A stretch of DNA of 19,215 nucleotides from Gemmatimonadota bacterium (lineage in GTDB: Bacteria; Latescibacterota; UBA2968; UBA8231). The stretch lies in assembly GCA_038153405.1 (NCBI GenBank), contig JAYOYH010000043.1, positions 21,989 through 41,203 on the forward strand. Direction: 5' to 3'. Shown here piece after piece: positions 394-19,215 of the stretch (position 1 is the stretch's first letter; each line of letters opens with the position of its first letter). The notes beneath the pieces are model-generated. The model was not told the origin of the DNA, did not search any database, and worked only from the letters and a program-made list of their open reading frames with translations. Made by a program: the position numbers and the translations under genes.

Positions 394-1455
394 TTGAACG
401 ACCAACCGTCCCGAGCCGATTATATCGTCGCCAACCTCAGCGAAGGGGTCGTCGTATTTGACGGCGCGGGGCGCGTGCAAACGGCCAATCCCGCCCTGCT
501 CCGCCTGCTCGACTGCGCGCTGCCGAGCAACGCCTCACTGTCCGACCTCTTTGCCCCGAGCACACCGCTGCACGCCGTGGCGCAAACAGCCCTGGCCGGC
601 CAGCCCGTCATCGATGCCGACGTACAGCACGGCGCGCACGACGGGCGTATACACTGGCTGCGGGTCAACGCCGCCGCGCTGCTCGACGAGCAGTCCAACC
701 CCCTCGGCACGATGATGACGCTGAGAGAAGTATCCGATCTCAAGCGCGCTGAACGACATATGGGACAGGTCGAAAAAATGAGCGCACTCGGCCGCCTGGC
801 CGCCTCCGTCGCCCACGAGGTGGGCAACCCGCTGGGGGCCATTGACATCCAGCTACAGCTGCTGCAGGAAGACCTCGACAAGACGAGCGAGTCGCTGTCG
901 GACAAGGCCCGCCGCCGACTCGATATTGCCCGCACCGAGATGCGCCGATTAGAGGGTATTGTGCAGAACTTCCTGCGCTTTTCGCGCCCGCCCGCCCTTC
1001 ACCTCAAACAGCTCGACCCGAACGAACTGGTAGACAGCATCTACCAACTAGTCGCGCCCGAAGCGCGCGAACGCTCGGTCCATTTGCACCTAGAGTCCGA
1101 CCGAGACCTACCCCCACTTGAAGCCGACGAAAACCAGCTCAGCCAGTGCCTGCTCAACCTGCTCATCAACGCCTTTCAAGCCGTCGACAGCGAGGGCCAT
1201 GTAACGCTGCGCGCGCGCGCCGATGGCGGCGATATCATCATCGAGATCGGCGACGATGGCCACGGCATTCCCCCGGACGATCTGGAGCACATTTTCGAGT
1301 TTTATTATACTACCAAAGACGAGGGCACTGGGCTGGGCCTGTCCATTGCCCAGCGCATTGTGCACCAGCACGGCGGCACGCTGAGCGTCGACAGTCGCCC
1401 GGGTGAGGGCACGCTGCTGGCCATCCACCTGCCCGGTCTGACAACGCAACCATAA
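394..1455 (+). CDS. Cytoplasmic PAS-domain sensor histidine kinase (NtrB/AtoS-like)
   Basis: PAS-like N-terminus (IVANLSEGVVVFD...NPA); H-box AASVAHEVGNPL; N-box QCLLNLLINA; G1 DDGHGI; F/G2 FYYTTKDEGTGLGL. No obvious TM segment. TTG start. Confidence 0.93.
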   Translation: MNDQPSRADYIVANLSEGVVVFDGAGRVQTANPALLRLLDCALPSNASLSDLFAPSTPLHAVAQTALAGQPVIDADVQHGAHDGRIHWLRVNAAALLDEQSNPLGTMMTLREVSDLKRAERHMGQVEKMSALGRLAASVAHEVGNPLGAIDIQLQLLQEDLDKTSESLSDKARRRLDIARTEMRRLEGIVQNFLRFSRPPALHLKQLDPNELVDSIYQLVAPEARERSVHLHLESDRDLPPLEADENQLSQCLLNLLINAFQAVDSEGHVTLRARADGGDIIIEIGDDGHGIPPDDLEHIFEFYYTTKDEGTGLGLSIAQRIVHQHGGTLSVDSRPGEGTLLAIHLPGLTTQP

Positions 1456-1468
1456 GAGCACCTACTCC

Positions 1469-2833
1469 ATGTCCAAACAGCGCGTCAACATACTCATTGC
1501 CGACGATGAAGTCTTTATCCGCGAAGGGCTCAAAGAGGCGCTGGAGACGGTAGCCGACCGCGTGGAAACCGTCGCCGACGGCCAGCAGGCGCGCGAAAGA
1601 CTGCGCACCGAACGCTACCATTTGGCCATTCTCGACCTGCGCATGCCGGGCCCTTCGGGTCTCGATCTGCTAGAGGAACTGCGCCGGCGTGAATCGGATA
1701 CGCAGGTCATCATTCTAACCGCACACGGCAACGTCAGCACGGCCGTTGAGGCGATGAAAAAGGGCGCGCACGACTTTCTCACCAAACCCGTCGACCTGGC
1801 ACACCTGCGCCTCGTCGCCGAGCGCGCCCTCGACCGCCTTCACCTCGTAACGGAAAACCGCAAGCTACACAGCCGCCTAGAAAACGGCGATCCCTTTCGC
1901 CGCCTCGTGCGGCACAGCGACAGCATGCAGGTGGCCTCCAAGCTGATCAAGCAGGTGGCGCAGTCGGACGTACCCGTCTTGCTGCGGGGCGAAACCGGCG
2001 TCGGCAAAGACCTCGTGGCCCGCGCTATTCACGAGCGCAGTAAGCGCAGCGACAAGCCCTTTGTTGCCGTCAACTGCGGCGGTTTTACCGAAGAGCTCTT
2101 TGCCAGCGAAATATTCGGCCACAAGCGCGGCGCCTTTACCGGCGCTCACGCCGACAAACCCGGTCGCTTTGCCCTGGCCGAAGGCGGCACGCTCTTCCTC
2201 GACGAGATCGGCGAGGTGCCCGTCAAGAACCAAGTCGAACTACTGCGCGTTCTCGAATCGCGTGAATACCAGCCGCTGGGCGAACCGCAGGTCCGCCACG
2301 CCAACGTGCGCATTATCGCCGCCACCAACCGCGACCTCGAGCGCAGCGTCGGCGACGGCTCGTTCCGCGAGGACCTCTACTACCGGCTCAACGTCGTGCC
2401 CATTGACATTCCGCCGCTGCGCCAGCGCCAAGAAGATATTCCCGTACTGGTCGAGACCTTTCTCGACGAGGCCTGTCGCGCCCAAGAGCGTCCGCAAAAG
2501 CGCCTTAGCAGCGAGGCCATGGGCTGCCTGCTAGCGCATGCCTGGCCCGGCAACGTGCGCGAGTTGCGCAATATTGTCCAACGCCTCGTCGTCACCGCAC
2601 CCGATCTGGTCATCCACCCGCAGCACCTGCCCCCCCATCTGGCCGAGGTCACCGAAGTAGAACCAAGCCATTTTAGCGTACGCCTCGGTTCCAGCGCCGC
2701 CCAGGTCGAGGCCGAACTCATCCGCCAAACGCTGCAGCGGGTAACCTCCAATCGGCGCAAAGCGGCGGACATTCTCGGTATGAGCGTGCGCGCGCTTCAA
2801 TACAAGATCAAAGAGTACGCCATCGCCCCTTAG
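1469..2833 (+). CDS. Sigma54-dependent response regulator (REC-AAA+-Fis HTH; NtrC/AtoC family)
   Basis: Receiver ILIADDE / LDLRMPG / KP; Walker A GETGVGKD; intact GAFTGA; Walker B LFLDEIGE; FREDLYYRLNV; WPGNVRELRN; C-terminal HTH NRRKAADILGMS. Confidence 0.96.
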   Translation: MSKQRVNILIADDEVFIREGLKEALETVADRVETVADGQQARERLRTERYHLAILDLRMPGPSGLDLLEELRRRESDTQVIILTAHGNVSTAVEAMKKGAHDFLTKPVDLAHLRLVAERALDRLHLVTENRKLHSRLENGDPFRRLVRHSDSMQVASKLIKQVAQSDVPVLLRGETGVGKDLVARAIHERSKRSDKPFVAVNCGGFTEELFASEIFGHKRGAFTGAHADKPGRFALAEGGTLFLDEIGEVPVKNQVELLRVLESREYQPLGEPQVRHANVRIIAATNRDLERSVGDGSFREDLYYRLNVVPIDIPPLRQRQEDIPVLVETFLDEACRAQERPQKRLSSEAMGCLLAHAWPGNVRELRNIVQRLVVTAPDLVIHPQHLPPHLAEVTEVEPSHFSVRLGSSAAQVEAELIRQTLQRVTSNRRKAADILGMSVRALQYKIKEYAIAP

Positions 2834-2848
2834 GTGCATTTTTTGCAC
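2834..2848. promoter_or_regulatory. Palindromic box GTGCA-N5-TGCAC, candidate enhancer-binding-protein site
   Basis: GTGCATTTTTTGCAC lies about 100 bp upstream of the -24 element. The same motif recurs at 3109-3123. Confidence 0.6.
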
Positions 2849-2914
2849 TTTTCTCCCCACCATGCGCTAAGCACGGCAGTCGCATCGCACTTCGTATTTT
2901 TTTAAATTATTATT

Positions 2915-2927
2915 TAACAATTAGTTA
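2915..2927 (+). promoter_or_regulatory. IHF-like site between the box and the sigma54 promoter
   Basis: TAACAATTAGTTA has one mismatch to WATCAANNNNTTR and is preceded by an A/T tract (~2895-2914). Confidence 0.5.
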
Positions 2928-2944
2928 AAGCCGAAGTCAGCACG

Positions 2945-2961
2945 CTGGCACTCCTTTTGCA
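2945..2961 (+). promoter_or_regulatory. Sigma54 (-24/-12) promoter
   Basis: CTGGCACTCCTTTTGCA: GG-N10-GC, a near-perfect match to YTGGCACGNNNNTTGCW. Confidence 0.85.
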
Positions 2962-3078
2962 CCCCTCTCCTGAACGCCAAAACGCGCCTTTTTTTGAGCG
3001 CGAACGCACATCGGCGTAACACCTTGTTTTACAATGACTCAAGCTGTAGGTAGCATGATTTACTACCGCCCTCAACGC

Positions 3079-3123
3079 GTGCAGTATCTGCGAAGGGGCC
3101 GGCACCACGTGCAATTTATGCAC
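3079..3123. promoter_or_regulatory. Pair of GTGCA-N5-TGC(AC) boxes 30 bp apart, downstream of the sigma54 promoter
   Basis: GTGCAGTATCTGCGA (3079-3093) and GTGCAATTTATGCAC (3109-3123). Confidence 0.55.
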
Positions 3124-3160
3124 TCCGATACCCACGCGTAACCGATTAAAAAGGCTTGTT

Positions 3161-3670
3161 TTGACGGCAATTCATCTCGCGACCCAGCGGGCAAATGCAA
3201 AAATTGCGCAACCGTTCGCTATCGCCGATGTCGTCGATCCAGCCCTCTTGCTGCCCGAGCTATCCGCTACGAGCAAGATCGGTGCAATCAAAGAGCTCGT
3301 CGATCGGCTGCACGGGCGCGGCATCGTCGAGGATAGTCTGAGTTTTTTGCAGTCCGTGCTGGAGCGCGAGCAGTTGCAGAGCACTATTCTCGGCACTGAA
3401 GTCGCCCTGCCGCACGCGCGCAGTCGCGGCGTGCGCGCGCTGGGCTTGGCCCTGGGCCGGACTGCGACGCCGATTGACTTTCCCTCTGGGGACGAGCGGC
3501 AAAGCGTGCGCCTGATTTGCCTTATCGCCGTGCCGTCCCACGCGCCGGATTCGTATTTGCACTTACTAGGGTCGCTGGCGCAGATACTGAGCCAGGCTGA
3601 GCGCAGAGATGCGCTACTGCAAGCGCAGTCGGCCAAACACATGCAAGAGCTGTTGCTGGAAACCGTCTGA
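3161..3670 (+). CDS. PTS EIIA domain protein (fructose/mannitol/PtsN type), standalone
   Basis: Motif LEREQLQSTILGTEVALPHAR with the phospho-acceptor His; IDF...VRLICLIAVP; YLHLLGSLAQIL. TTG start preceded by AAAAGG; the start is somewhat uncertain. Confidence 0.88.
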   Translation: MTAIHLATQRANAKIAQPFAIADVVDPALLLPELSATSKIGAIKELVDRLHGRGIVEDSLSFLQSVLEREQLQSTILGTEVALPHARSRGVRALGLALGRTATPIDFPSGDERQSVRLICLIAVPSHAPDSYLHLLGSLAQILSQAERRDALLQAQSAKHMQELLLETV

Positions 3671-3705
3671 AGATAGCGAACTTCACCTCATACGAAGGAC
3701 ACACC

Positions 3706-4578
3706 ATGGCCTACAGCATTCAGGAAATTCTCAGCGACGAAGAGACGACGCTGCGCCTCTACTTCGACGATATCGCCGACTCGCGCCCTTTGAGCCGCGA
3801 GCGCGAGGTCGAGCTCGCCGCCCGCATTTTGGAAGGCGATATGGTCGCCCGCGACGAGCTGGTCAATGCCAACCTGCGCTTTGTCATCGACGTCGCCAAG
3901 AACTACCAGAATCGCGGTCTTTCGCTGTCGGACCTGATCAGCGCCGGCAACGTCGGTCTGCTGACGGCCGCCGAGCGCTTTGACGGCACCAAGGGCTACA
4001 AGTTCATCTCCTACGCCGTTTGGTGGATTAAGCAGTCGATCCTGCAGTCCATCGCCGAGCACGCGCGCACGGTGCGCCTGCCCCTCAACAAGCTCAGTCT
4101 GTTGAAGGACATCTCCAAGGCCTCGCGCAAGCTAGGCCAGGGCCGCGAGAGCGAGCCAGCCATCGAAGAAATTGCCCGCGAGCTGGATATTCCTGAGCAG
4201 GAAATTCTCGACACGATGATGAGCGCGCGCTCCGTGCGCTCGCTCGACGAATCCTTTGAGGAGGACGACGAGCGCAGTCTGCTGAACATTCTCGCCGATG
4301 AGAACCAGGCCACGCCCGATAGCCACGTGCTGGAGACGTCGGCGCGCGCTCAGTTGGAAGAAGTACTAGAGAGCCTCGATGAGCGCGAGCTGCGCATCAT
4401 CCGCCTCTACTTTGGCCTGGACGGCAGCGAATCGCTAACGCTGGAGCAGATCGGCGGCCTGATGGGCCTCACGCGCGAGCGCGTGCGCCAGCTCAAGGAG
4501 CGCGCCCTCGGCAAGCTGCGCCATCCGGCTCGCTATCAGGCGCTGCTGGCGCTGATTGACGAAACCGAAGTCTACTAG
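3706..4578 (+). CDS. RpoD/SigA-family sigma70 factor lacking region 1.1 (290 aa)
   Basis: Region 1.2 LRLYFDDI...LSREREVELA; region 2 ANLRFVIDVAKNY...GYKFISYAVWWIKQSI; region 4 TLEQIG...TRERVRQL. SD AAGGA. Confidence 0.95.
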   Translation: MAYSIQEILSDEETTLRLYFDDIADSRPLSREREVELAARILEGDMVARDELVNANLRFVIDVAKNYQNRGLSLSDLISAGNVGLLTAAERFDGTKGYKFISYAVWWIKQSILQSIAEHARTVRLPLNKLSLLKDISKASRKLGQGRESEPAIEEIARELDIPEQEILDTMMSARSVRSLDESFEEDDERSLLNILADENQATPDSHVLETSARAQLEEVLESLDERELRIIRLYFGLDGSESLTLEQIGGLMGLTRERVRQLKERALGKLRHPARYQALLALIDETEVY

Positions 4579-4606
4579 CGCCCCGCGCTCATAGCACCCA
4601 TTGACA

Positions 4607-7472: not shown

Positions 7473-8041
7473 TGCGAGACGACCGTGCGCTCGGCGTCTG
7501 CGTCTACTGCGGATCGCGCCCGGGCGCCCACCCGTCCTACGAGCAGCAGGCTCGAGCGCTTGGCACGGCCCTTGGCCGGTGCGATCTGCCCCTCGTCTAC
7601 GGCGGTGGCCACGTGGGCATGATGGGCGCGCTGGCCAATGCCGCCCTGGCAGCGGGTGGCACCGCCATCGGCGTTATCCCGCGTGCCATGGTCGAGCGCG
7701 AGTGGGCGCATCCGCACCTGAGCGAACTGCTCGTCGTCGAAGATATGCACCAGCGCAAGGCCGCCATGGCGCGGCGAGCGCAGTGCTACGTCGCGCTGCC
7801 CGGCGGCTTTGGCACGCTGGAAGAGCTGGCCGAAACGCTGTCCTGGGCCCAGCTCGACTTCCACCAAAAACCGCTCTTTTTGCTGAACGTGCGCGGCTAT
7901 TTCGACCCCCTGCTAGCCTTTCTCGATCACTGCGTCGGCGAGCGCTTTGCCGAACCGGTCCATCGCCGACTGCTGCAGGTTACCAACAGCGTCGACGAGC
8001 TCTTAGACCATACCCACTTTCCCACGGCGCGTCACACGTAG
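7472..8041 (+). CDS. LOG-family nucleotide phosphoribohydrolase (TIGR00730-like)
   Basis: CVYCGS, LVYGGGHVGMMG, MHQRK and PGGFGTLEE motifs. TGATG overlap with the upstream gene. Confidence 0.94.
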   Translation: MRDDRALGVCVYCGSRPGAHPSYEQQARALGTALGRCDLPLVYGGGHVGMMGALANAALAAGGTAIGVIPRAMVEREWAHPHLSELLVVEDMHQRKAAMARRAQCYVALPGGFGTLEELAETLSWAQLDFHQKPLFLLNVRGYFDPLLAFLDHCVGERFAEPVHRRLLQVTNSVDELLDHTHFPTARHT

Positions 8042-9057
8042 GGATCGTCTTCTACCGAACGCGGAACGCGCAGCAGCTGTCGCTCTTCCAACGCGCGCAC
8101 CGCCTGCACAATGCGGTCCTGCGCCGCCTGCACCTCGCTCATGCGCACCGGTGCCAGCGCCTGTATATCCTCCATGAAACGCGCGCGCCGCCGCTCGGAC
8201 ATGGCGCTAAGAAACGCGTCGCGCACCGCCTTATCGGCTGCGCGCAGCGCCAGGCGCAGGTCGCCCATATCAATTTGCTCGAGCAGCATCTGCGCGTCGT
8301 GCTCGGGCAGACGTGCCAGATCGTCGAACGACAGCAGGCGGCGACGGACCGCTTCAGCCGCTTCGGGATCCTGTTCATCGATGCGCGCCAGCACGCCTTT
8401 TTCCAATCTGCCGCCGCCCGCATTGAGAATAGCGGCCAGCGTCTCCGACCCGCCCACGCGATGTTCGCCGTCCAGCGCAGCGGCGAGTAGCTCGGCCAAA
8501 TTCTCCTCCACGGCGCGCACGATCTCCGAATCGACCTTTCCCAGCGTGGCGATGCGATGAGCCACCTCGCCCTGCACCGCACCCGGCAGGCACTCGAGTA
8601 TGGCAGCAGCCTGCTCTGTGGCCAGCTGCGATAGGATCAACGCGATGGTCTGCGGATGCTCGCGCGCGATAAAGGGAGCAGCGCGCTGGGGATCGAGATT
8701 GCGCAGCAGGGCAAATCCCGCCGCCGGCTCACCCAGCGCACGCTCCAGCATCGCGCGCGCCCGCTCTGGTCCCAGCGCGCGCTCCAGCACCTGGCGGGCG
8801 TAGTGCACGCCACCGGCAACCGCACCATCGCCTTCCAGCGCCGCGGCAAACTCGGCCAGCACGCGGTCCTGCATATCTTTCGACACGCCCTTTAAATCGA
8901 TCAGCGCCTGCGCCACTTCGGCCGCCTCGTCGTCGTCGAGCTGGCGCATGAGATCGGCGGCCAACTCATCGCCTAGGGCCACCATGAGCACGGCGATTTT
9001 ATCCCAGGAGGGCAACGCCGCGCGCAGGCGCTCCTTGTCGATGTCGATTTGGCGCAT
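8032..9057 (-). CDS. fliG: Flagellar motor switch protein FliG homologue
   Basis: KIAVLMVALG N-domain; GGVHYARQVLERALG; EHPQTIALILS middle-domain motif; GG linker; LSFDDL (MFxF-like); AMSERR...PVRMSEVQAAQ C-domain. Confidence 0.9.
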   Translation of the reverse strand: MRQIDIDKERLRAALPSWDKIAVLMVALGDELAADLMRQLDDDEAAEVAQALIDLKGVSKDMQDRVLAEFAAALEGDGAVAGGVHYARQVLERALGPERARAMLERALGEPAAGFALLRNLDPQRAAPFIAREHPQTIALILSQLATEQAAAILECLPGAVQGEVAHRIATLGKVDSEIVRAVEENLAELLAAALDGEHRVGGSETLAAILNAGGGRLEKGVLARIDEQDPEAAEAVRRRLLSFDDLARLPEHDAQMLLEQIDMGDLRLALRAADKAVRDAFLSAMSERRRARFMEDIQALAPVRMSEVQAAQDRIVQAVRALEERQLLRVPRSVEDDPYV

Positions 9058-9060
9058 GAC

Positions 9061-9831
9061 CTATCCCTCTTCTTGCAGTTTTCTCAACTCGTCGCGCAGC
9101 AGGGCGGCCCGCTCAAAATCCTCGCGCGCCACTGCTTCTTCCTGCAGTCGCTCGAGTTGCTCAAGGCGACTGAGCGGCCGCTTGTCCTGCAGTTCGCGCT
9201 GCAATTCGTCCAGCGCCTGCTCCGAGCGCTCCATCTCGGCGTGAAACTCCTCCGCATCGACGGCGCGGCACTGGCCAATGTGCGCCCGCGTCTCCTCGAC
9301 GATTTCCAGCGCGCGATCGTAGGCGTCGTCCTCGCAGGCCAGCATCGCGCGCGCCGTCCCGTGAATGCGTAAGATATAGGGCCACCACTTCTCTAGATTA
9401 AGCCGATCGTCTTCCTCGGCGGCGTAGCGATTGACAAAGCGAAACAGGCTCATATTGCGCTCCGTATCGCGGATTACGCGACCGTAGTCTTTTAACTGCA
9501 GCAGAAAAACGTAGCGCTCATAGAGGCGCGCGCCCTCCTCAAACAGCTCTTTGCAATCTGCCGGTTCAAGCAAAAAGTCGCTTCTATCCGCATTGACAGC
9601 ATTGCCCTGGCGCTCCTGCTCTGCGCGAAAGTAGTCAAGGGCAAAATCGCTCCCATGCGGCTTTCTTCCGTCGGGTCGCCCGTCTAAATCGAGCTGTAGA
9701 ATGCCCTGGAAGGCGCCCTGGTCAATGCGCACCTGGATTTTCTCCACGCCATCTTCACCGCGTATTTTGCGCACGTTGGCCTCCGGATCGAACGCCCACT
9801 CCTTCAAGAGTTCTGTGATATCTTGCTTCAT
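9061..9831 (-). CDS. Conserved hypothetical protein with a C-terminal UvrB/UvrC (UVR) coiled-coil motif
   Basis: C-terminus LQEEAVAREDFERAALLRDEL is a UVR motif. N-terminus VRKIRGEDGVEKIQVR...GRPDGRKP. ATG 9831 follows AAGGAG. Confidence 0.82.
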   Translation of the reverse strand: MKQDITELLKEWAFDPEANVRKIRGEDGVEKIQVRIDQGAFQGILQLDLDGRPDGRKPHGSDFALDYFRAEQERQGNAVNADRSDFLLEPADCKELFEEGARLYERYVFLLQLKDYGRVIRDTERNMSLFRFVNRYAAEEDDRLNLEKWWPYILRIHGTARAMLACEDDAYDRALEIVEETRAHIGQCRAVDAEEFHAEMERSEQALDELQRELQDKRPLSRLEQLERLQEEAVAREDFERAALLRDELRKLQEEG

Positions 9832-10011
9832 CCTGTTCTCCTTCGCCCCGCAGCAAACGCAACGCCGCACACCGGTATGATACCTTGCACCCTAGGCGAT
9901 GTCAATTGCCGCCGCCCACTCGATGTAGAGACACCTGGCTGGCATCTATACGCGCAGGGGCGCCTTTCAAAGGAACCTCACGGCACGCCGTGCGCCTCAC
10001 TCCATTGCATA

Positions 10012-10040: not shown

Positions 10041-10069
10041 ACCTCAATTATATCACATATTTGTGCGAA

Positions 10070-11638
10070 ATGGAGCCCATGAGCACGTTGACCAATTCGA
10101 CGCCCAATGCGCGTCAGCAAATTTCTGCCCTGCATGCCATCGGTCAGATCCTCGGCGAAACGACCGATTTTGAGGAGGCGCTCAACCAAATCCTCAAAGC
10201 CATCTGCGAAGGACTCAATATGAGCCTAGCCACCGTCAGCTTGCTGCACGAGCAAACGGACCAAGTCACCATTGATGTGGCCTACGGCCTGTCGCGCAGC
10301 GAAATAGAGCGCGGTCGCTACAAGGTCGGCGAGGGCATTACCGGCAAAGTCGTAGAGTCCGGCAAACCGGTCATCGTGCCGCGCATCAGCAGCGAGCCTC
10401 TCTTTCTCAACCGCACCGGAGCCCACGGCAACGAAAAAGAGCAGACATCCTTTATTTGCGTGCCCATCTCCCTATCGCAGGAAGTGGTCGGCACCCTCAG
10501 CGTGGACACGCCATACGAGAGCGATCCCGTGCTGCAGGAGACCGTGCGCCTACTTTCCATTATAGCCGTCATGATCGGCCAATCGGTTGCCGCTCGCAAG
10601 CGCGCGCGCGACGAGCAAATGCAGTTGGTCGATGAAAATCAGCGCCTTAAACAGGAACTGCGCGAGCGCTTTCAACCGGCTAACCTGATTGGCAATGCGC
10701 GGCCCATGCAGGAAATCGGCGAGCTGGTGCGCCAAGTCGCGCCCAGCGATGCAACCGTCATGCTGCGCGGCGAAAGCGGCACCGGTAAAGAGCTCCTGGC
10801 CGACGCCCTGCACTACAACAGCCTGCGCGCCAACAAGAACTTCGTCAAAGTCCACATCGCCGCCCTGCCCGAAACGCTGATTGAAAGCGAGCTATTTGGC
10901 TACGAAAAGGGGGCCTTTACCGGTGCGTCGGGCAGTAAAATAGGCCGTTTTGAACGGGCCAATGGCGGCACGATATTCCTCGACGAAATTGGCGAACTCA
11001 GCCCCGCCGTCCAGGTTAAGCTGCTGCGCGTGCTGCAAAATCGCGAAGTGGAACGCCTCGGCAGCGATGCCCCGACCCCGATCGACGTGCGCATTGTCGC
11101 CGCGACCCACGTCAATCTAGAAAAAGCCGTAGCCGAGGGCACTTTTCGCGAAGACCTGTTTTACCGCCTCAACGTATTTCCGATTTTTATGCCTCCGCTG
11201 CGCGAGCGCAAATCGGATATTTTACTGCTGGCCGACCACTTTCTCGAAAAGTACGCTCGTCAGCACAGCAGCGAAATTCGCCGCATTTCAACTCCGGCCA
11301 TTGATATGATGATGAGCTACCACTGGCCCGGCAACGTGCGCGAACTGGAAAACTGCATCGAACGCGCCGTTATTCTCAGCAGCGACGGCGTGGTGCACGG
11401 CCATCACATGCCGCCGTCGCTGCAGACGGCCGATGCGACTAACACCCCGGTGGCCGGCTCCTTCGAGGTGCTTATAAAGGCCTACGAACGCGAGATCCTG
11501 ATCGAAGCGCTTAAGAACGCGCGCGGCAATATGGCCAAAGCCGCGCGCATCCTTGGCACGTCAACGCGCATTTTCTCTTATCGAATCCAAAAACTGGATA
11601 TCGAGCCCAAGCAATACAAGAGTAAAAAACAACAATAA
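10070..11638 (+). CDS. NifA-like GAF-AAA+-HTH sigma54 transcriptional activator
   Basis: GAF domain (YKVGEGITGKV...SFICVPI); Walker A GESGTGKE; ESELFGYEKGAFTGA; FREDLFYRLNV; HTH GNMAKAARILG. Start could be 10061, 10070 or 10079. Confidence 0.93.
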   Translation: MEPMSTLTNSTPNARQQISALHAIGQILGETTDFEEALNQILKAICEGLNMSLATVSLLHEQTDQVTIDVAYGLSRSEIERGRYKVGEGITGKVVESGKPVIVPRISSEPLFLNRTGAHGNEKEQTSFICVPISLSQEVVGTLSVDTPYESDPVLQETVRLLSIIAVMIGQSVAARKRARDEQMQLVDENQRLKQELRERFQPANLIGNARPMQEIGELVRQVAPSDATVMLRGESGTGKELLADALHYNSLRANKNFVKVHIAALPETLIESELFGYEKGAFTGASGSKIGRFERANGGTIFLDEIGELSPAVQVKLLRVLQNREVERLGSDAPTPIDVRIVAATHVNLEKAVAEGTFREDLFYRLNVFPIFMPPLRERKSDILLLADHFLEKYARQHSSEIRRISTPAIDMMMSYHWPGNVRELENCIERAVILSSDGVVHGHHMPPSLQTADATNTPVAGSFEVLIKAYEREILIEALKNARGNMAKAARILGTSTRIFSYRIQKLDIEPKQYKSKKQQ

Positions 11639-11673
11639 CGTAGTTTTACAAAGCTTTTAAACTACATTATTGT
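11632..11673. promoter_or_regulatory. Candidate upstream activator sites (ACA-N4-TGT type) for the amtB promoter
   Basis: ACAATAACGT (11632) and ACATTATTGT (11664) are 32 bp apart, with a weaker ACAAAGCTTT (11648) midway. They lie about 95-135 bp upstream of the -24 element. Confidence 0.45.
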
Positions 11674-11764
11674 TTCTTTTTAGTCCTCTCTCCATGTGCC
11701 TTCCATCGCGGTAACTAGCTGTTTTAAAAGAGCTAAACAATTTATTCGTGCCCACTCCTTCCGC

Positions 11765-11781
11765 TTGGCACCCCGCTTGCT
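11765..11781 (+). promoter_or_regulatory. Sigma54 (-24/-12) promoter of amtB-glnK
   Basis: TTGGCACCCCGCTTGCT: GG-N10-GC consensus. Confidence 0.9.
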
Positions 11782-11911
11782 ATCCCAATGCTGAAACGTT
11801 AGCGCGCTTTCTCACTCGTTCCCACCGCCGGGCGCTCTTCACACAGCGCTACCCCGCTAGGCGCGGCAGAGGGGGAGATCAGTAGCAACGCACCGCAAAG
11901 GGAAGGATACT

Positions 11912-13246
11912 ATGCCCAATCTCCGCACAGCAGCACTCGCAGCGCTATCTGCGCTGATTGCAGCAGGAAGCAGCACCGTCCACGCTGAGGACTTCACGAC
12001 CATGGAGGCTTTTCAGGCCATGCCCTTGGCCTATCCCAAGTTTATGATCGATAACTTGTGGATTTTGATCTCGGCCGCCCTGGTATTCATCATGCACCTC
12101 GGCTTTGCCACGCTGGAGACCGGTCTCACGCGCCAGAAGAACACGGTCAATATTCTCTTCAAAAACCTTTTCATCATATCCATAGGCATCGTCTCCTACG
12201 CCCTGACCGGCTTCAACACCATGTATCCGGGCGATTTCAACGGATATCTAGCCATTAAGGGATGGATTGGCTTTGACGGCGACGTTGCCAATCTGACCAA
12301 TCAATACGCCGACTACACCTACTGGTCCGACTTTATTTTTCAGGCCATGTTCGCCGCCACCGCGGCCACTATCGTCTCCGGCGCCGTCGCCGAACGCGTC
12401 AAACTCTCCGGCTTCATGCTATACGCTACGCTGCTCGTGGCCTTTATGTATCCCATCGCCGGATCCTGGAAGTGGGGCGGCGGCTGGCTCGACCAGATGG
12501 GTTTTTACGACTTTGCCGGCTCCTCGCTCGTGCATGCCTTCGGCGGATTTGCCGCGCTGGGCGCCGTGCTGGTGCTCGGACCGCGCATGGGCAAATACGT
12601 AGACGGTCATATCCGCCCCATTCTCGGCCACAGCATGCCGCTGGCTACCATTGGCGTTTTCCTGCTCTGGCTGGGCTGGTATGGCTTTAACGGAGGCTCA
12701 GTGCTCAGCGCCGATCCGACCCTCGTATCGCTGGTCTTTGTCACGACTACGCTGGCGGCGGCCGGCGGCTGCCTGGCGGCCATTATTACCTCTTATATCT
12801 ACCTGAAGAAACCCGATATTACCATGGGTCTAAACGGCATTCTCGCCGGACTCGTCGGCATCACCGCTGGCGCCGACACCGTGACGTGGAGCAGCGCCAT
12901 GCTCATCGGCCTGATCGCTGGCGCCATCGTCGTATTTGCCATCGTCATTATCGACCGCATCAAGATCGACGATCCCGTTGGCGCCATCTCCGTGCACGGC
13001 ATCTGCGGCATCTGGGGAACGCTGGCCGTCGGCCTGTTTAGCACCAACCCCGAACACACCTTTAGCACGCAGCTTCTCGGCACGCTGTGCTATGCGAGCT
13101 TTGCCTTTGTCATTTCGCTCATTCTGGCCTCCCTTGCGAAGGTCACCTTCGGCTTCCGCGTCGACGAAGACGAGGAATACGAGGGCCTCGATTTGAGCGA
13201 ACACGGTCAGCCGGCCTACGCCGACTTCCAGCACATAAACAACTAA
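11912..13246 (+). CDS. amtB: Ammonium transporter
   Basis: FQAMFAATAATIVSGAVAER, DFAGSSLVH, GWYGFNGGS and IDDPVGAISVHG; both conserved His residues are retained. Signal-peptide-like N-terminus. Confidence 0.97.
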   Translation: MPNLRTAALAALSALIAAGSSTVHAEDFTTMEAFQAMPLAYPKFMIDNLWILISAALVFIMHLGFATLETGLTRQKNTVNILFKNLFIISIGIVSYALTGFNTMYPGDFNGYLAIKGWIGFDGDVANLTNQYADYTYWSDFIFQAMFAATAATIVSGAVAERVKLSGFMLYATLLVAFMYPIAGSWKWGGGWLDQMGFYDFAGSSLVHAFGGFAALGAVLVLGPRMGKYVDGHIRPILGHSMPLATIGVFLLWLGWYGFNGGSVLSADPTLVSLVFVTTTLAAAGGCLAAIITSYIYLKKPDITMGLNGILAGLVGITAGADTVTWSSAMLIGLIAGAIVVFAIVIIDRIKIDDPVGAISVHGICGIWGTLAVGLFSTNPEHTFSTQLLGTLCYASFAFVISLILASLAKVTFGFRVDEDEEYEGLDLSEHGQPAYADFQHINN

Positions 13247-13274
13247 GAGCGCTTGTGACCAAGGAGAATACGCC

Positions 13275-13613
13275 ATGTTTAAAATCGAAGCATACTTGCG
13301 TCCTTCCGCTCTGGAAGGCGTGCAAAAGGCCCTCGGAGAAATTGGTATCGTCGGCATGTCCGTAACGGAAATCCGCGGTTTTGGCCGCCAGCGCGGCCAT
13401 CGCGAGGTCTACCGCGGCGCCGAGTACCGCATCGACTTCGTGCCCAAAATCAAGGTCGAAGTCGTGGTGAAAGACGCAGACAAAGACGGGGCAATTAACG
13501 CCATAGTCGAGTCATCGAAGTCGGGCAAAGTCGGCGATGGAAAAGTTTTTTCCTCGCCCGTGCAAGACGCGGTGCGCATACGAACAGGCGAAACCGGAGA
13601 GGGTGCTCTCTGA
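13275..13613 (+). CDS. glnK: P-II nitrogen regulatory protein
   Basis: 112 aa; T-loop GFGRQRGHREVYRGAEY with Tyr51; GKVGDGKVF; RIRTGETG. SD AAGGAG. Adjacent to amtB. Confidence 0.96.
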   Translation: MFKIEAYLRPSALEGVQKALGEIGIVGMSVTEIRGFGRQRGHREVYRGAEYRIDFVPKIKVEVVVKDADKDGAINAIVESSKSGKVGDGKVFSSPVQDAVRIRTGETGEGAL

Positions 13614-16774: not shown

Positions 16775-17683
16775 GTGAAACTCACAATCGGCAGCCGCGG
16801 CAGCAAACTGGCTCTTACGCAGACGCATCACGTGCGCGACCAACTGTGCGCCCTACACGACGACCTCGAAGTCGAGATCGCGATTATTCGCACCACTGGC
16901 GATGGCAGTGGCGACTCCCTGCGCAGCTTTGGCGGCCAGGGCGTCTTCACCAAAGAATTGGAAAACGCCCTGCTCGACGGGCGCGTCGATTTAGCCGTGC
17001 ACAGCCTCAAAGACCTGCCAACGCAGTTCCACCCCGATCTCGACATTGTCGCCACGCCGCCGCGCGAAGATGTGCGCGACGCGCTGGTGGCCGGCGCCGA
17101 ATACAGCGCGCTGAGCGAACTGCCTGCCGGCGCCGTCGTCGGCACCGGCAGCCCGCGTCGGCAAACTCAACTGCGCGCCCTGCGCGACGACCTCGAACTC
17201 GTGGATATCCGCGGCAATCTCGACACCCGCATCGACAAAGTTGCCCAGGGCGCATGCGCGGCCATTCTGCTGGCGGCCGCCGGACTGCACCGCCTAGGTT
17301 GGCGGCGACACATTAGCGCCTATCTACCGGTGTCCGACATATTACCCGCTGCTGGCCAGGCCGCCCTCGGCCTGCAGATGCGCTGCGACCATCCGCTGCG
17401 CGCGTACGTGGCGGGCCTGGACGACGCCAGCACCCATCAGTCCATATCGGCCGAGCGCAGCCTGCTGCGCACCCTGCGCGGAGGCTGCCACGCGCCCGTC
17501 GCCGCATGGGCGCGCATTGAAGAGGGCCAATTGGTGCTGGACGGGCGCGTCGGACATCCCAGCGGCGCGCCGCTCCTGCACGCACGGCGCAGCGCGCCGC
17601 CCGACCGCGCCGAAGCGCTCGGATCCGACTTGGCAGAGGATCTGCGCGCACAGGGCGCCGACGCCATTATCCAAGAGCGCTAA
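16775..17683 (+). CDS. hemC: Hydroxymethylbilane synthase
   Basis: IGSRGSKLALTQ, GVFTKELE, AVHSLKDLP, IRGNLDTR and GGCHAPV (cofactor Cys). GTG start. Confidence 0.97.
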   Translation: MKLTIGSRGSKLALTQTHHVRDQLCALHDDLEVEIAIIRTTGDGSGDSLRSFGGQGVFTKELENALLDGRVDLAVHSLKDLPTQFHPDLDIVATPPREDVRDALVAGAEYSALSELPAGAVVGTGSPRRQTQLRALRDDLELVDIRGNLDTRIDKVAQGACAAILLAAAGLHRLGWRRHISAYLPVSDILPAAGQAALGLQMRCDHPLRAYVAGLDDASTHQSISAERSLLRTLRGGCHAPVAAWARIEEGQLVLDGRVGHPSGAPLLHARRSAPPDRAEALGSDLAEDLRAQGADAIIQER

Positions 17684-19215
17684 TGGTCGACGCCTCAATC
17701 CACTCTACGCCCGGCATGGTCTATATCGTCGGTGCTGGACCGGGCGATCCAGGCCTGCTGACCTGCAAAGGAGCAGAGGCCCTGCGGCGCGCCGACGTCG
17801 TCTTTTACGACGAACTGCTCGATCGCCGGCTCCTCGACCTAACCGAGCCGCGCTGCCAGCACATCTACGTCGGTAAGCGGGGCGGTCGCACGAGCGCCAC
17901 ACAGGAAGAAATTAACGACCAACTGTCCGAACGCGCACGCAGCGGCCAGGTCGTGGTCCGCCTCAAGGGCGGCGATCCCTTTGTATTCGGACGCGGCGGC
18001 GAAGAAGCGCTGCACCTGAGCCATGCCGGTATCGACTTCGAAATCATCCCCGGCATCTCTGCGGCCGCCGGCGCGACCGCCTACGCCGGCATTCCCCTCA
18101 CCCACCGCGGCCTGGCCTCGGCCGCCGTTCTCGTCACCGGCAACGAAGATCCCGAGGCCGACAACGGCCAGGTCGACTGGCCCACCCTCGCCCAACTCGA
18201 CGCCACGTTGGTCGTCTTTATGGCAGCGCGCACCCTGCCCGGCATCTGCCGCGTCCTCGTGCGCCATGGCCGACTAGCCACCACGCCAGCGGCCGTCGTT
18301 GAGTGGGGCACTTGGTCGCGCCAGCGCACCGTTGAAGGCTCGCTAGCCACTCTGCCCGGATTGGCCGAAGAGGCCGGCATCGCCTCGCCGGCCCTCATCG
18401 TGGTCGGCGACGTCGTATCGCTGCGTTCGCAGCTGGCGTGGCGCGAGCACAGAGCCCTATTCGGGCGCACCGTACTCGTCACGCGCAGCAGAGAGCAATC
18501 CGCCGAACTGGTCGCGCACCTGGAGCGGGCCGGTGCCGAAGCGCGCATTCTCCCCCTGTTGGACATCTCTGCACCCGATGACCTTGGCCCGCTCGACGCC
18601 GCGCTGCGCACCCTCTCAGAATGGGATTGGCTGCTCTTTACCAGCGCCAACGGCGTGCGTTTTTTCTCTGCGCGCCTCCAGTCCCTACAACTCGATGCGC
18701 GCGCCCTGGCCCACCTGCGCATCGCCGCCGTGGGCAGCAAAACGGCCGAGGCGTTAGCCGTATGCGGTCTGCGCGCCGACTTGGTGCCCGCCGAGCAATC
18801 GCAGCAGGGCCTAGCAAAGGCCTTCGCCGAGCTGGATATGCAGGGCGCGCGCGTGCTCTTCCCGACCTCGGCCATTGGCCGCACCGAATTAGTCGAGTTC
18901 CTGCAGGAGCGCGGAGCCCGCGTCGAGCGGGTGACGGCGTACCAAAATCGCCCGCCGACCGCGATCGATACGCGCTCAGCGCTCGACGGCGAGGCGGCAA
19001 TCGACATGGTCGTCTTTGCCAGCCCATCTAGCGTCGATCACCTCTACGAAGTCCTAGGGCCAGACGGTGCCCAGCGGCTATTTGAGCGCGCCGCCGTATC
19101 CTGTATTGGTCCCACCACCGCCGCCGCCGCCCGTGCGCGCGGTCTGCCAGTGCACGTCCAACCCGATCACAGCAGCGTGCCGGCACTCGTCGAACACATA
19201 TGCGCCTACTACGGC
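17683..19215 (+). CDS. cobA: Uroporphyrinogen-III C-methyltransferase / uroporphyrinogen-III synthase fusion (CobA-HemD), 3' end outside the window
   Basis: Manual translation from the TAATG overlap with hemC: VYIVGAGPGDPGLLT, VVRLKGGDPFVFGRGGEE, AYAGIPLTHR, then the HemD part LFGRTVLVTR, LFTSANGV, VFASPSSV, CIGPTTA. Absent from the ORF track because it has no stop in the window. Confidence 0.95.
   Translation, partial: MVDASIHSTPGMVYIVGAGPGDPGLLTCKGAEALRRADVVFYDELLDRRLLDLTEPRCQHIYVGKRGGRTSATQEEINDQLSERARSGQVVVRLKGGDPFVFGRGGEEALHLSHAGIDFEIIPGISAAAGATAYAGIPLTHRGLASAAVLVTGNEDPEADNGQVDWPTLAQLDATLVVFMAARTLPGICRVLVRHGRLATTPAAVVEWGTWSRQRTVEGSLATLPGLAEEAGIASPALIVVGDVVSLRSQLAWREHRALFGRTVLVTRSREQSAELVAHLERAGAEARILPLLDISAPDDLGPLDAALRTLSEWDWLLFTSANGVRFFSARLQSLQLDARALAHLRIAAVGSKTAEALAVCGLRADLVPAEQSQQGLAKAFAELDMQGARVLFPTSAIGRTELVEFLQERGARVERVTAYQNRPPTAIDTRSALDGEAAIDMVVFASPSSVDHLYEVLGPDGAQRLFERAAVSCIGPTTAAAARARGLPVHVQPDHSSVPALVEHICAYYG

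Follow-up and report, generated by a model that had tools for sequence, protein, structure and literature searches.

We examined a block of four co-oriented genes (394-4578), for a sensor kinase, a transcriptional activator, an enzyme IIA (EIIA) of the phosphotransferase system (PTS) and a sigma factor, on a 19,215-nucleotide stretch of DNA, hereafter the window, from an uncultured Latescibacterota-type bacterium. The window belongs to contig C43 of an assembly (GCA_038153405.1, our G000) that is 93% complete and consists of 93 contigs. The first gene (394-1455, forward strand, TTG start) encodes a PAS histidine kinase of 353 amino acids with an NtrB/AtoS-like architecture, made up of the Pfam domains PAS_4, HisKA and HATPase_c. 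Its H-box reads 'SVAHEVGNPL', and the protein is predicted to be cytoplasmic; no hydrophobic stretch or membrane segment was seen when the sequence of 394-1455 was read by eye. The top NCBIfam match was AtoS, at 286 bits, under the cut-off of 646. The second gene (1469-2833, forward strand, 454 amino acids) encodes an NtrC-type response regulator that is a bacterial enhancer-binding protein (bEBP) for sigma-54. It has the domain set of the NtrC class, namely a receiver domain (Response_reg, 107.5 bits), an AAA+ sigma-54 interaction domain (Sigma54_activat, 229.7 bits, with AAA_lid_14) and a C-terminal Fis-type helix-turn-helix (HTH_8, 40.1 bits), and the GAFTGA motif can be read directly within 'KRGAFTGAHAD'. 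Its scores fell under the NCBIfam cut-offs for AtoC (417 vs 714 bits), NtrC (406.5 vs 558.6) and ZraR (337.9 vs 760); the protein is a member of the class that stands outside these named orthologue groups.

Across an intergenic region of 327 bp from the activator gene lies the gene for a standalone PtsN-like EIIA (3161-3670, forward strand, 169 amino acids), which has a conserved TTG start after AAGG and matches PF00359 (PTS_EIIA_2) at 104.9 bits. The solved chains nearest to it by sequence are EIIA-Ntr (PtsN) structures, 2a0j, 3urr, 4gqx and 1a6j. All 12 orthologues compared have the histidine of 'ALPHAR' (His85), which lines up with the phospho-site motif 'AIPHGR' of 2a0j. Thus, the protein has the fold and the phospho-acceptor histidine of PtsN, while its score on the PtsN model TIGR01419 is under the cut-off (64.7 vs 138.7 bits) and its gene lies outside an rpoN cluster. 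The genome also encodes EI and HPr (contig C88) and HPr kinase (contig C20) and, because the phosphorylatable histidine is kept, EIIA would be phosphorylated via EI and HPr. The last gene of the block (3706-4578, forward strand) follows after a gap of 35 bp (3671-3705) that contains a GAAGGA Shine-Dalgarno sequence, and encodes a short RpoD/RpoS-like sigma factor of 290 amino acids, an accessory copy as described below. Regions 1.2, 2, 3 and 4 were all found (Pfam Sigma70_r1_2 31.7, r2 60.5, r3 56.3 and r4 60.2 bits), as expected of a group 1 or group 2 sigma factor, and since region 1.2 begins at residue 16 there is no space for region 1.1. The best named model was rpoS_proteo (TIGR02394), at 255.3 bits against a cut-off of 378.7, and a second RpoS model, NF004207, gave 241 against 394; with both scores below cut-off, the protein is not a member of RpoS. 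The original prediction, made from the letters of the window, had named the kinase, the GAFTGA-bearing activator, the EIIA, the sigma factor without region 1.1 and the 35-bp gap, and domain matches placed every one of them where it had put them.

We found an exact match to the sigma-54 promoter consensus TGGCAC-N5-TTGCA, TGGCACTCCTTTTGCA, at 2946-2961 on the forward strand, one base away from the 2945-2961 first proposed, with a predicted transcription start near 2972. Within the window alone the motif is not rare: three matches with at most one mismatch were found, compared with 0.83 in the average shuffle, and at least three turned up in 17 of 200 shuffles. The 4.86-Mb genome has eight exact matches, and about five would be expected by chance, as estimated from base composition. 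We judge the promoter to be real because it is conserved at the same place in relatives, and not because of its motif score. The original prediction had named absence of rpoN from the genome as a reason to reject it; one copy was found (one Sigma54_DBD match, 217 bits), on contig C32. In the DNA contigs of two sequencing runs (X3 and X4) an extra A stands behind position 2960, a strain variant that affects neither TTGCA nor the -24/-12 spacing.

The promoter is flanked on both sides by dyads of the form TGCA-N5-TGCA. The upstream dyad TGCATTTTTTGCA (2835-2847) lies within the longer GTGCA-N5-TGCAC palindrome GTGCATTTTTTGCAC (2834-2848), 111 bp from the -24 element, and is the predicted enhancer (upstream activating sequence) of the adjacent activator. 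The downstream dyad TGCAATTTATGCA (3110-3122) lies in the predicted transcribed leader, 164 bp past the -24 element and 39 bp ahead of the EIIA start. Between the upstream dyad and the promoter is an A+T-rich block, TTTAACAA-N4-TTAA (2913-2928), which resembles the IHF consensus and may be an IHF-like bending site. An alignment of eight loci mostly kept this block, one row deviating in its first half and one in its last, and four genes of the HU/IHF family were found in the genome.

The original prediction stood or fell with the conservation of the gene order and of the -24/-12 motif in relatives. We collected two sets of loci: 30 around EIIA orthologues, the window's own locus counted, and 45 with longer flanks, the species of the two sets overlapping. 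The relatives found with the EIIA alignment were mostly submitted as Candidatus Latescibacterota; the nearest ones were submitted as Gemmatimonadota, Planctomycetota or 'uncultured bacterium', and genome grouping puts all of them in one phylum. In the first set the activator, EIIA and sigma genes were colinear at all 30 loci. In the second, EIIA was followed by sigma at all 45, the activator gene was directly upstream at 42 (of the other three, one is truncated where its contig stops and two carry an insertion of about 4.3 kb), and a kinase orthologue preceded the activator gene at 40, the remaining five being two loci cut by contig ends and three where none was found. At the two loci with the insertion (L090 and L091), where the 4.3 kb lies between the activator and EIIA genes, there was no good sigma-54 site within 650 nt of EIIA. 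In one species represented in both sets (L062 and L028) the sigma gene was matched in two pieces, as was the kinase gene in L062, pointing to frameshifts or assembly errors in a metagenome-assembled genome. Four weaker loci found with the EIIA query in other phyla (WOR-3, Planctomycetales, Verrucomicrobiota and Planctomycetia) had no sigma gene beside the match in any case (0/4). Conservation of the order was therefore borne out.

The control region was conserved as well. When the best sigma-54-like site of each intergenic region was taken, GG-N10-GC was present at 30 of the 30 loci and the fuller TGG[CT]A[CT]-N5-TTGC at 28, so that the -24/-12 motif is indeed shared with relatives; in the second set 43 of 45 loci had a promoter scoring at least 18 of a maximum of 20.5. 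An exact upstream TGCA-N5-TGCA was found between -100 and -124 at 26 of 30 loci, and between -99 and -146 at 41 of 45. Its offsets group near -101, -111 to -114 and -120 to -124, with about one helical turn between groups, which is what an enhancer that depends on the face of the helix would probably give. One or two downstream dyads were present at 22 of 30 loci and, in the second set, at 36 of the 43 where the promoter was credible; how far they lie from the promoter, between +116 and +330, depends on the lineage. In the alignment of eight loci, conservation of the leader was restricted to the downstream dyad and to the ribosome site plus the TTG start of EIIA. No Rfam family was found in the window at gathering scores, or in 2800-3750 at E up to 1. 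The fold of the leader (2972-3175) had a z of -1.98 and paired the ribosome site of EIIA with a U-run close to the 5' end; we considered a conserved translational trap and dropped it, the U-run being absent from the closest relatives. A 35-amino acid leader reading frame (3034-3141) was also rejected, as it is not kept in relatives.

We then asked how far EIIA itself is conserved. Of 120 other genomes sampled evenly across the phylum, 68 had an EIIA orthologue (E up to 1e-25, always single-copy), distributed over four families (26 of 40 genomes in f1, 29 of 29 in f2, 11 of 13 in f4 and 2 of 2 in f6), and none of 36 genomes of ten further families had one. Six relatives without EIIA were examined (loci L097 and L157-L161 of genomes G009, G003, G036, G007, G025 and G021), four of them one- or two-contig assemblies. 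In every one of them the sigma orthologue is still preceded, at 318-657 nt, by the activator gene and by the sigma-54 promoter with its upstream and downstream dyads. None of the seven loci of solo sigma paralogues had an activator gene or a dyad. Because the relatives without EIIA keep the activator, the dyads and the promoter directly before the sigma gene, the sigma factor is the core output of the block and EIIA is dispensable. What is conserved at the core is therefore the link from sigma-54 to the sigma gene, and EIIA has been lost repeatedly. Since such relatives keep the remainder of the block, EIIA would be a modulator, a dispensable add-on rather than a required link.

The sigma gene is one of many in its genome. 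Fourteen sigma-70-family matches were found, of which nine are short RpoD-like copies of 277-302 amino acids (on contigs C3, C6, C7, C14, C20, C31, C33 and C43, two of them on C6), one is FliA-like (contig C53) and four are ECF-like (extracytoplasmic function). None of the 14 has an N-terminus long enough for region 1.1 in this 93%-complete genome; the primary sigma factor of the Latescibacterota-type group may itself be without region 1.1, as in Bacteroidota. The closest paralogue of the window's sigma factor, 76% identical (C7:40259-41107), stands alone. Three of the nine copies were scored against the RpoD model NF006666, and among these the C20 copy (C20:76811) was the most RpoD-like at 286.5 bits, followed by the C7 copy (254.2) and the window's sigma factor (240.2). 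With nine such paralogues, a higher score for the C20 copy and a conserved sigma-54 promoter upstream, the window's copy does not look like a primary sigma factor, and it is not the only RpoD-like one in its genome. In a tree of 36 sequences from six genomes, from which three rows with stops or truncation were excluded, all five EIIA-linked sigma factors fell in one clade of 13 rows (support 85/87), in which the linked copy of family f2 branches off first. In family f1 the clade was duplicated into linked and solo copies, and the C20 copy sits on short, conserved branches. We also tried dnaG as a marker of the primary sigma gene, which was no help, as dnaG lies on a small contig without a sigma gene.

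Next, we looked at the junction between EIIA and sigma. No promoter-like or terminator-like site was called in the 35-bp gap, so a constitutive promoter of the sigma gene's own, which the original prediction had raised against itself, was not seen there. Near-identical contigs covering 3005-4597 were found in four RNA libraries of three studies, and one contig of 605 nt (3607-4211) crosses the EIIA/sigma junction. The 5'-most ends of the RNA-library contigs, from two studies, fall at 3005 and 3022, positions that DNA contigs of other studies run across. Both ends come after the predicted start near 2972 and before a sigma-70-like match at 3028-3056, and they are a weak hint of a start near 2972. 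The parts without RNA contigs (2611-2958 and the larger share of the two regulator genes, kinase and activator) are not to be read as silent.

We also searched the genome for further sites of the same kind. With a spacer of A and T only (TGCA-W5-TGCA), the dyad occurs just seven times in the whole genome, two being in the window and two on contig C11, where a third dyad has a C in the spacer. The C11 locus (C11:68192-68849, corresponding to L127:1188-1845) consists of a dyad at -110, a sigma-54 promoter, TGGCATAAATCTTGCT, dyads at +108 and +171, and a reading frame of 114 amino acids followed by a strong hairpin. Among 125 loose sigma-54-like sites in the genome, only the window's locus and C11:68302 combine upstream and downstream dyads. 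The layout is kept in five further genomes; a sixth (L134) yielded only the promoter and the dyads downstream of it. The 114-amino acid protein consists of a degenerate sigma region 4 and nothing else. Over 55 residues it shares 40% identity with the corresponding region of the window's sigma factor, and its score on Pfam Sigma70_r4, 16.6 bits, is under the cut-off; it reads 'LGARRTMEI' where the window's sigma factor has 'LTRERVRQL'. Clear orthologues, with 44-67% identity, were seen in the same genus only; one other genus gave two weaker matches (35%, each with one in-frame stop). We predict that this gene is a second target of the same activator, and its product may be a sigma mimic or decoy.

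We conclude that the block is a conserved regulatory unit, shared by dozens of related species. Its PAS kinase and NtrC-type activator very likely turn on the two-gene operon next to their own genes, of EIIA and an accessory sigma factor, by way of the sigma-54 promoter. As far as comparison of genomes can tell, this wiring is supported by conservation at every level examined. The kinase would phosphorylate the activator, which would bind the dyads and, helped by a bend at the TTTAACAA-N4-TTAA block, open the sigma-54 promoter complex. Transcription would then begin near 2972 and continue through EIIA and sigma, and the newly made sigma factor would redirect part of the RNA polymerase.

Several observations weigh against this reading, and we considered them together with the explanations that they favor. 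The genome has about 13 full-length bEBPs, each of which could in principle use the dyads, binding of the adjacent activator being predicted, and one of the dyads is on the downstream side of the promoter, where repressor operators typically lie. The dyads might thus serve some other regulator, be it a repressor or another bEBP, as operators, and the adjacent two-component system, a neighbor for historical reasons, might act elsewhere. We consider this improbable, however, given that the activator gene, the dyads and the promoter occur together at 42 of 45 loci and in all six genomes without EIIA, that solo sigma paralogues have neither activator gene nor dyad, and that the upstream dyad keeps to about -111 or one helical turn to either side, as enhancers of sigma-54 promoters do. 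The transcript itself can be questioned too. In some relatives the gap between EIIA and sigma is 76-227 bp, wide enough for a possible second promoter for sigma; the leader contains the sigma-70-like match mentioned above, TTTACA-17-TAGCAT (3028-3056), which occurs at chance rate; the RNA evidence consists of assembled contigs rather than reads, from libraries that can contain DNA and from runs chosen with 2800-4600; and a contig spanning two genes is no proof of one transcript. If the sigma-54 promoter served EIIA alone, sigma would have a constitutive promoter of its own or be the main sigma factor of the cell, to which the lack of any N-terminus of region 1.1 length among the 14 matches would lend some color. 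This is very improbable, since in all six relatives without EIIA the sigma-54 promoter stands directly before the sigma gene, and the 35-bp gap of the window with no promoter or terminator called, the RNA-library contig that bridges it, and the more RpoD-like C20 copy among nine short ones speak against it as well.

What remains most debatable is the part played by EIIA. On the tree of sigma factors, the label 'EIIA-linked' needs three changes, linked and solo copies being interleaved. Between two genomes of one genus EIIA is 68-69% identical, compared with 84-87% for the activator and 99% for the sigma factor, and this faster evolution, like the repeated loss, seems to fit a loose add-on better than an obligate partner. 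EIIA could thus be a co-regulated output only, acting like proteobacterial PtsN on unrelated targets such as ion transport and central metabolism and not on the kinase, the activator or the sigma factor. This has a substantial chance of being right, if somewhat short of an even one, and the presence of four EIIA-family genes in the genome agrees with it. Yet EIIA, where present, always lies between the promoter and sigma, at 45 of 45 loci in at least four families and as a single copy per genome, and linkage that tight would usually mean a shared function. That EIIA relays the metabolic state of the cell back onto the circuit, through the kinase, the activator or the sigma factor, is a tentative proposal that we would put at about one in three. 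A complex prediction for EIIA and sigma scored 0.00 in both runs (alignments A1 and A2), which gives no verdict either way. A bolder version of the same idea, in which one activator fires two sigma-54 promoters, a phospho-histidine EIIA directly gates the sigma factor or the kinase according to metabolic state, and the region-4-only protein acts as a decoy that loosens the hold of the resident sigma factor on core polymerase, is unlikely, and we offer it as speculation.

The closest known system to the predicted circuit is the Hk2-Rrp2-RpoN-RpoS cascade of Borrelia burgdorferi, as described in two reports (PMC2940757, PMC1976401). The two are alike in having the gene of a PAS-type kinase beside that of an NtrC-type activator, and in that this activator, together with sigma-54, turns on the gene of an RpoS/RpoD-like sigma factor, by which transcription is reprogrammed. 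The block thus has all that a cascade of the Borrelia type consists of, a kinase, an NtrC-type activator and a sigma-54 promoter ahead of a sigma-70-family gene, a likeness in how the two work that makes no claim on common descent. It differs from the Borrelia cascade in that the target operon adjoins the activator gene and dyads flank the promoter on both sides; Rrp2 reportedly acts without a defined enhancer. It differs further in having a PtsN-like EIIA at the head of the operon, a sigma factor drawn from nine short paralogues, a region-4-only protein as its predicted second output, and uncultured bacteria of the Latescibacterota type as hosts. A looser likeness is to the flagellar hierarchies of Vibrio, Pseudomonas and Campylobacter that lead from sigma-54 to FliA (sigma-28), where a sigma-54 activator also drives the gene of another sigma factor. 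In Caulobacter, activator sites on either side of the promoter are known too, the ftr sites of FlbD lying upstream or downstream of sigma-54 promoters. Unlike in those hierarchies, the window's sigma factor is of the group 1/2 type with regions 1.2 to 4 and not a FliA, and the operon has no flagellar genes.

For EIIA, the comparison is with proteobacterial PtsN. In E. coli, EIIA-Ntr has an effect on sigma selectivity through potassium and, to our knowledge, the influence of EIIA-Ntr on sigma competition and RpoS stability in Proteobacteria is only indirect. In Azotobacter vinelandii, unphosphorylated EIIA-Ntr affects RpoS-dependent expression and RpoS proteolysis, according to two papers (PMC4314083, PMC12923157). 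The window's EIIA is like PtsN in being a standalone protein of the fructose/mannitol class with a conserved phospho-histidine, in a genome with EI, HPr and HPr kinase, as in a regulatory PTS. It is unlike PtsN, which is encoded in the rpoN operon, in that rpoN is on another contig, and in that the EIIA gene is itself behind a sigma-54 promoter and co-oriented with a sigma-70-family gene 35 bp away. Our literature search, which covered few subscription journals, found no paper on Latescibacteria sigma factors or on an operon of EIIA and sigma; the claim that no system with this arrangement had been described was not contradicted in the literature searched. What is new is the presence of EIIA in a probable sigma-54-driven sigma operon, the dyads in the leader and the predicted region-4-only second target; the principle of the cascade itself is known.

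We know of no cultured member of the Latescibacterota and of nothing established about their gene regulation. The block offers a concrete and testable circuit for this group, with a promoter, an enhancer motif and a predicted regulon of two operons, the parts of which are small enough to be rebuilt in E. coli. Because the EIIA gene is coupled to the sigma gene across at least four families, a direct link between the regulatory PTS and the choice of sigma factor is worth testing, and the natural losses of EIIA provide ready comparisons. If EIIA and the region-4-only protein did act together as a PTS-gated polymerase switch, this would be a direct link from EIIA to a sigma factor, undescribed in any bacterium, and the decoy would represent a new class of sigma mimic. 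Leads on the geometry of sigma-54 enhancers and on sigma mimicry also come from the downstream dyads and the region-4-only protein.

Other parts of the window also contain features of interest. Ahead of amtB (11912-13246) and a P-II gene (13275-13613) there is another exact sigma-54 promoter, TGGCACCCCGCTTGCT (11766-11781). It is preceded by the gene of a bEBP with a GAF domain (10061-11638), whose score on the NifA model, 515.7 bits, falls short of the cut-off of 528.85; the whole of 10061-13613 looks like an ordinary nitrogen module. On the reverse strand, at 8032-9870, a fliG gene (270.5 bits, above the cut-off) adjoins the gene of a 269-amino acid protein with only a UVR motif, and its neighbors are unrelated genes, of LOG-family and DnaJ-domain proteins, rather than a flagellar cluster. 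The open frame at the left end of the window contains a G homopolymer and then a C homopolymer (ggggtgggggggggcccccccgcgc, 35-57), which resemble an assembly artefact, and contigs of 31 nt from one RNA library (X17) stack at 28-55. At the right end (17683-19215, forward strand), after hemC, a gene for a fused uroporphyrinogen-III C-methyltransferase/uroporphyrinogen-III synthase (TP_methylase and HEM4) continues past the end of the window.

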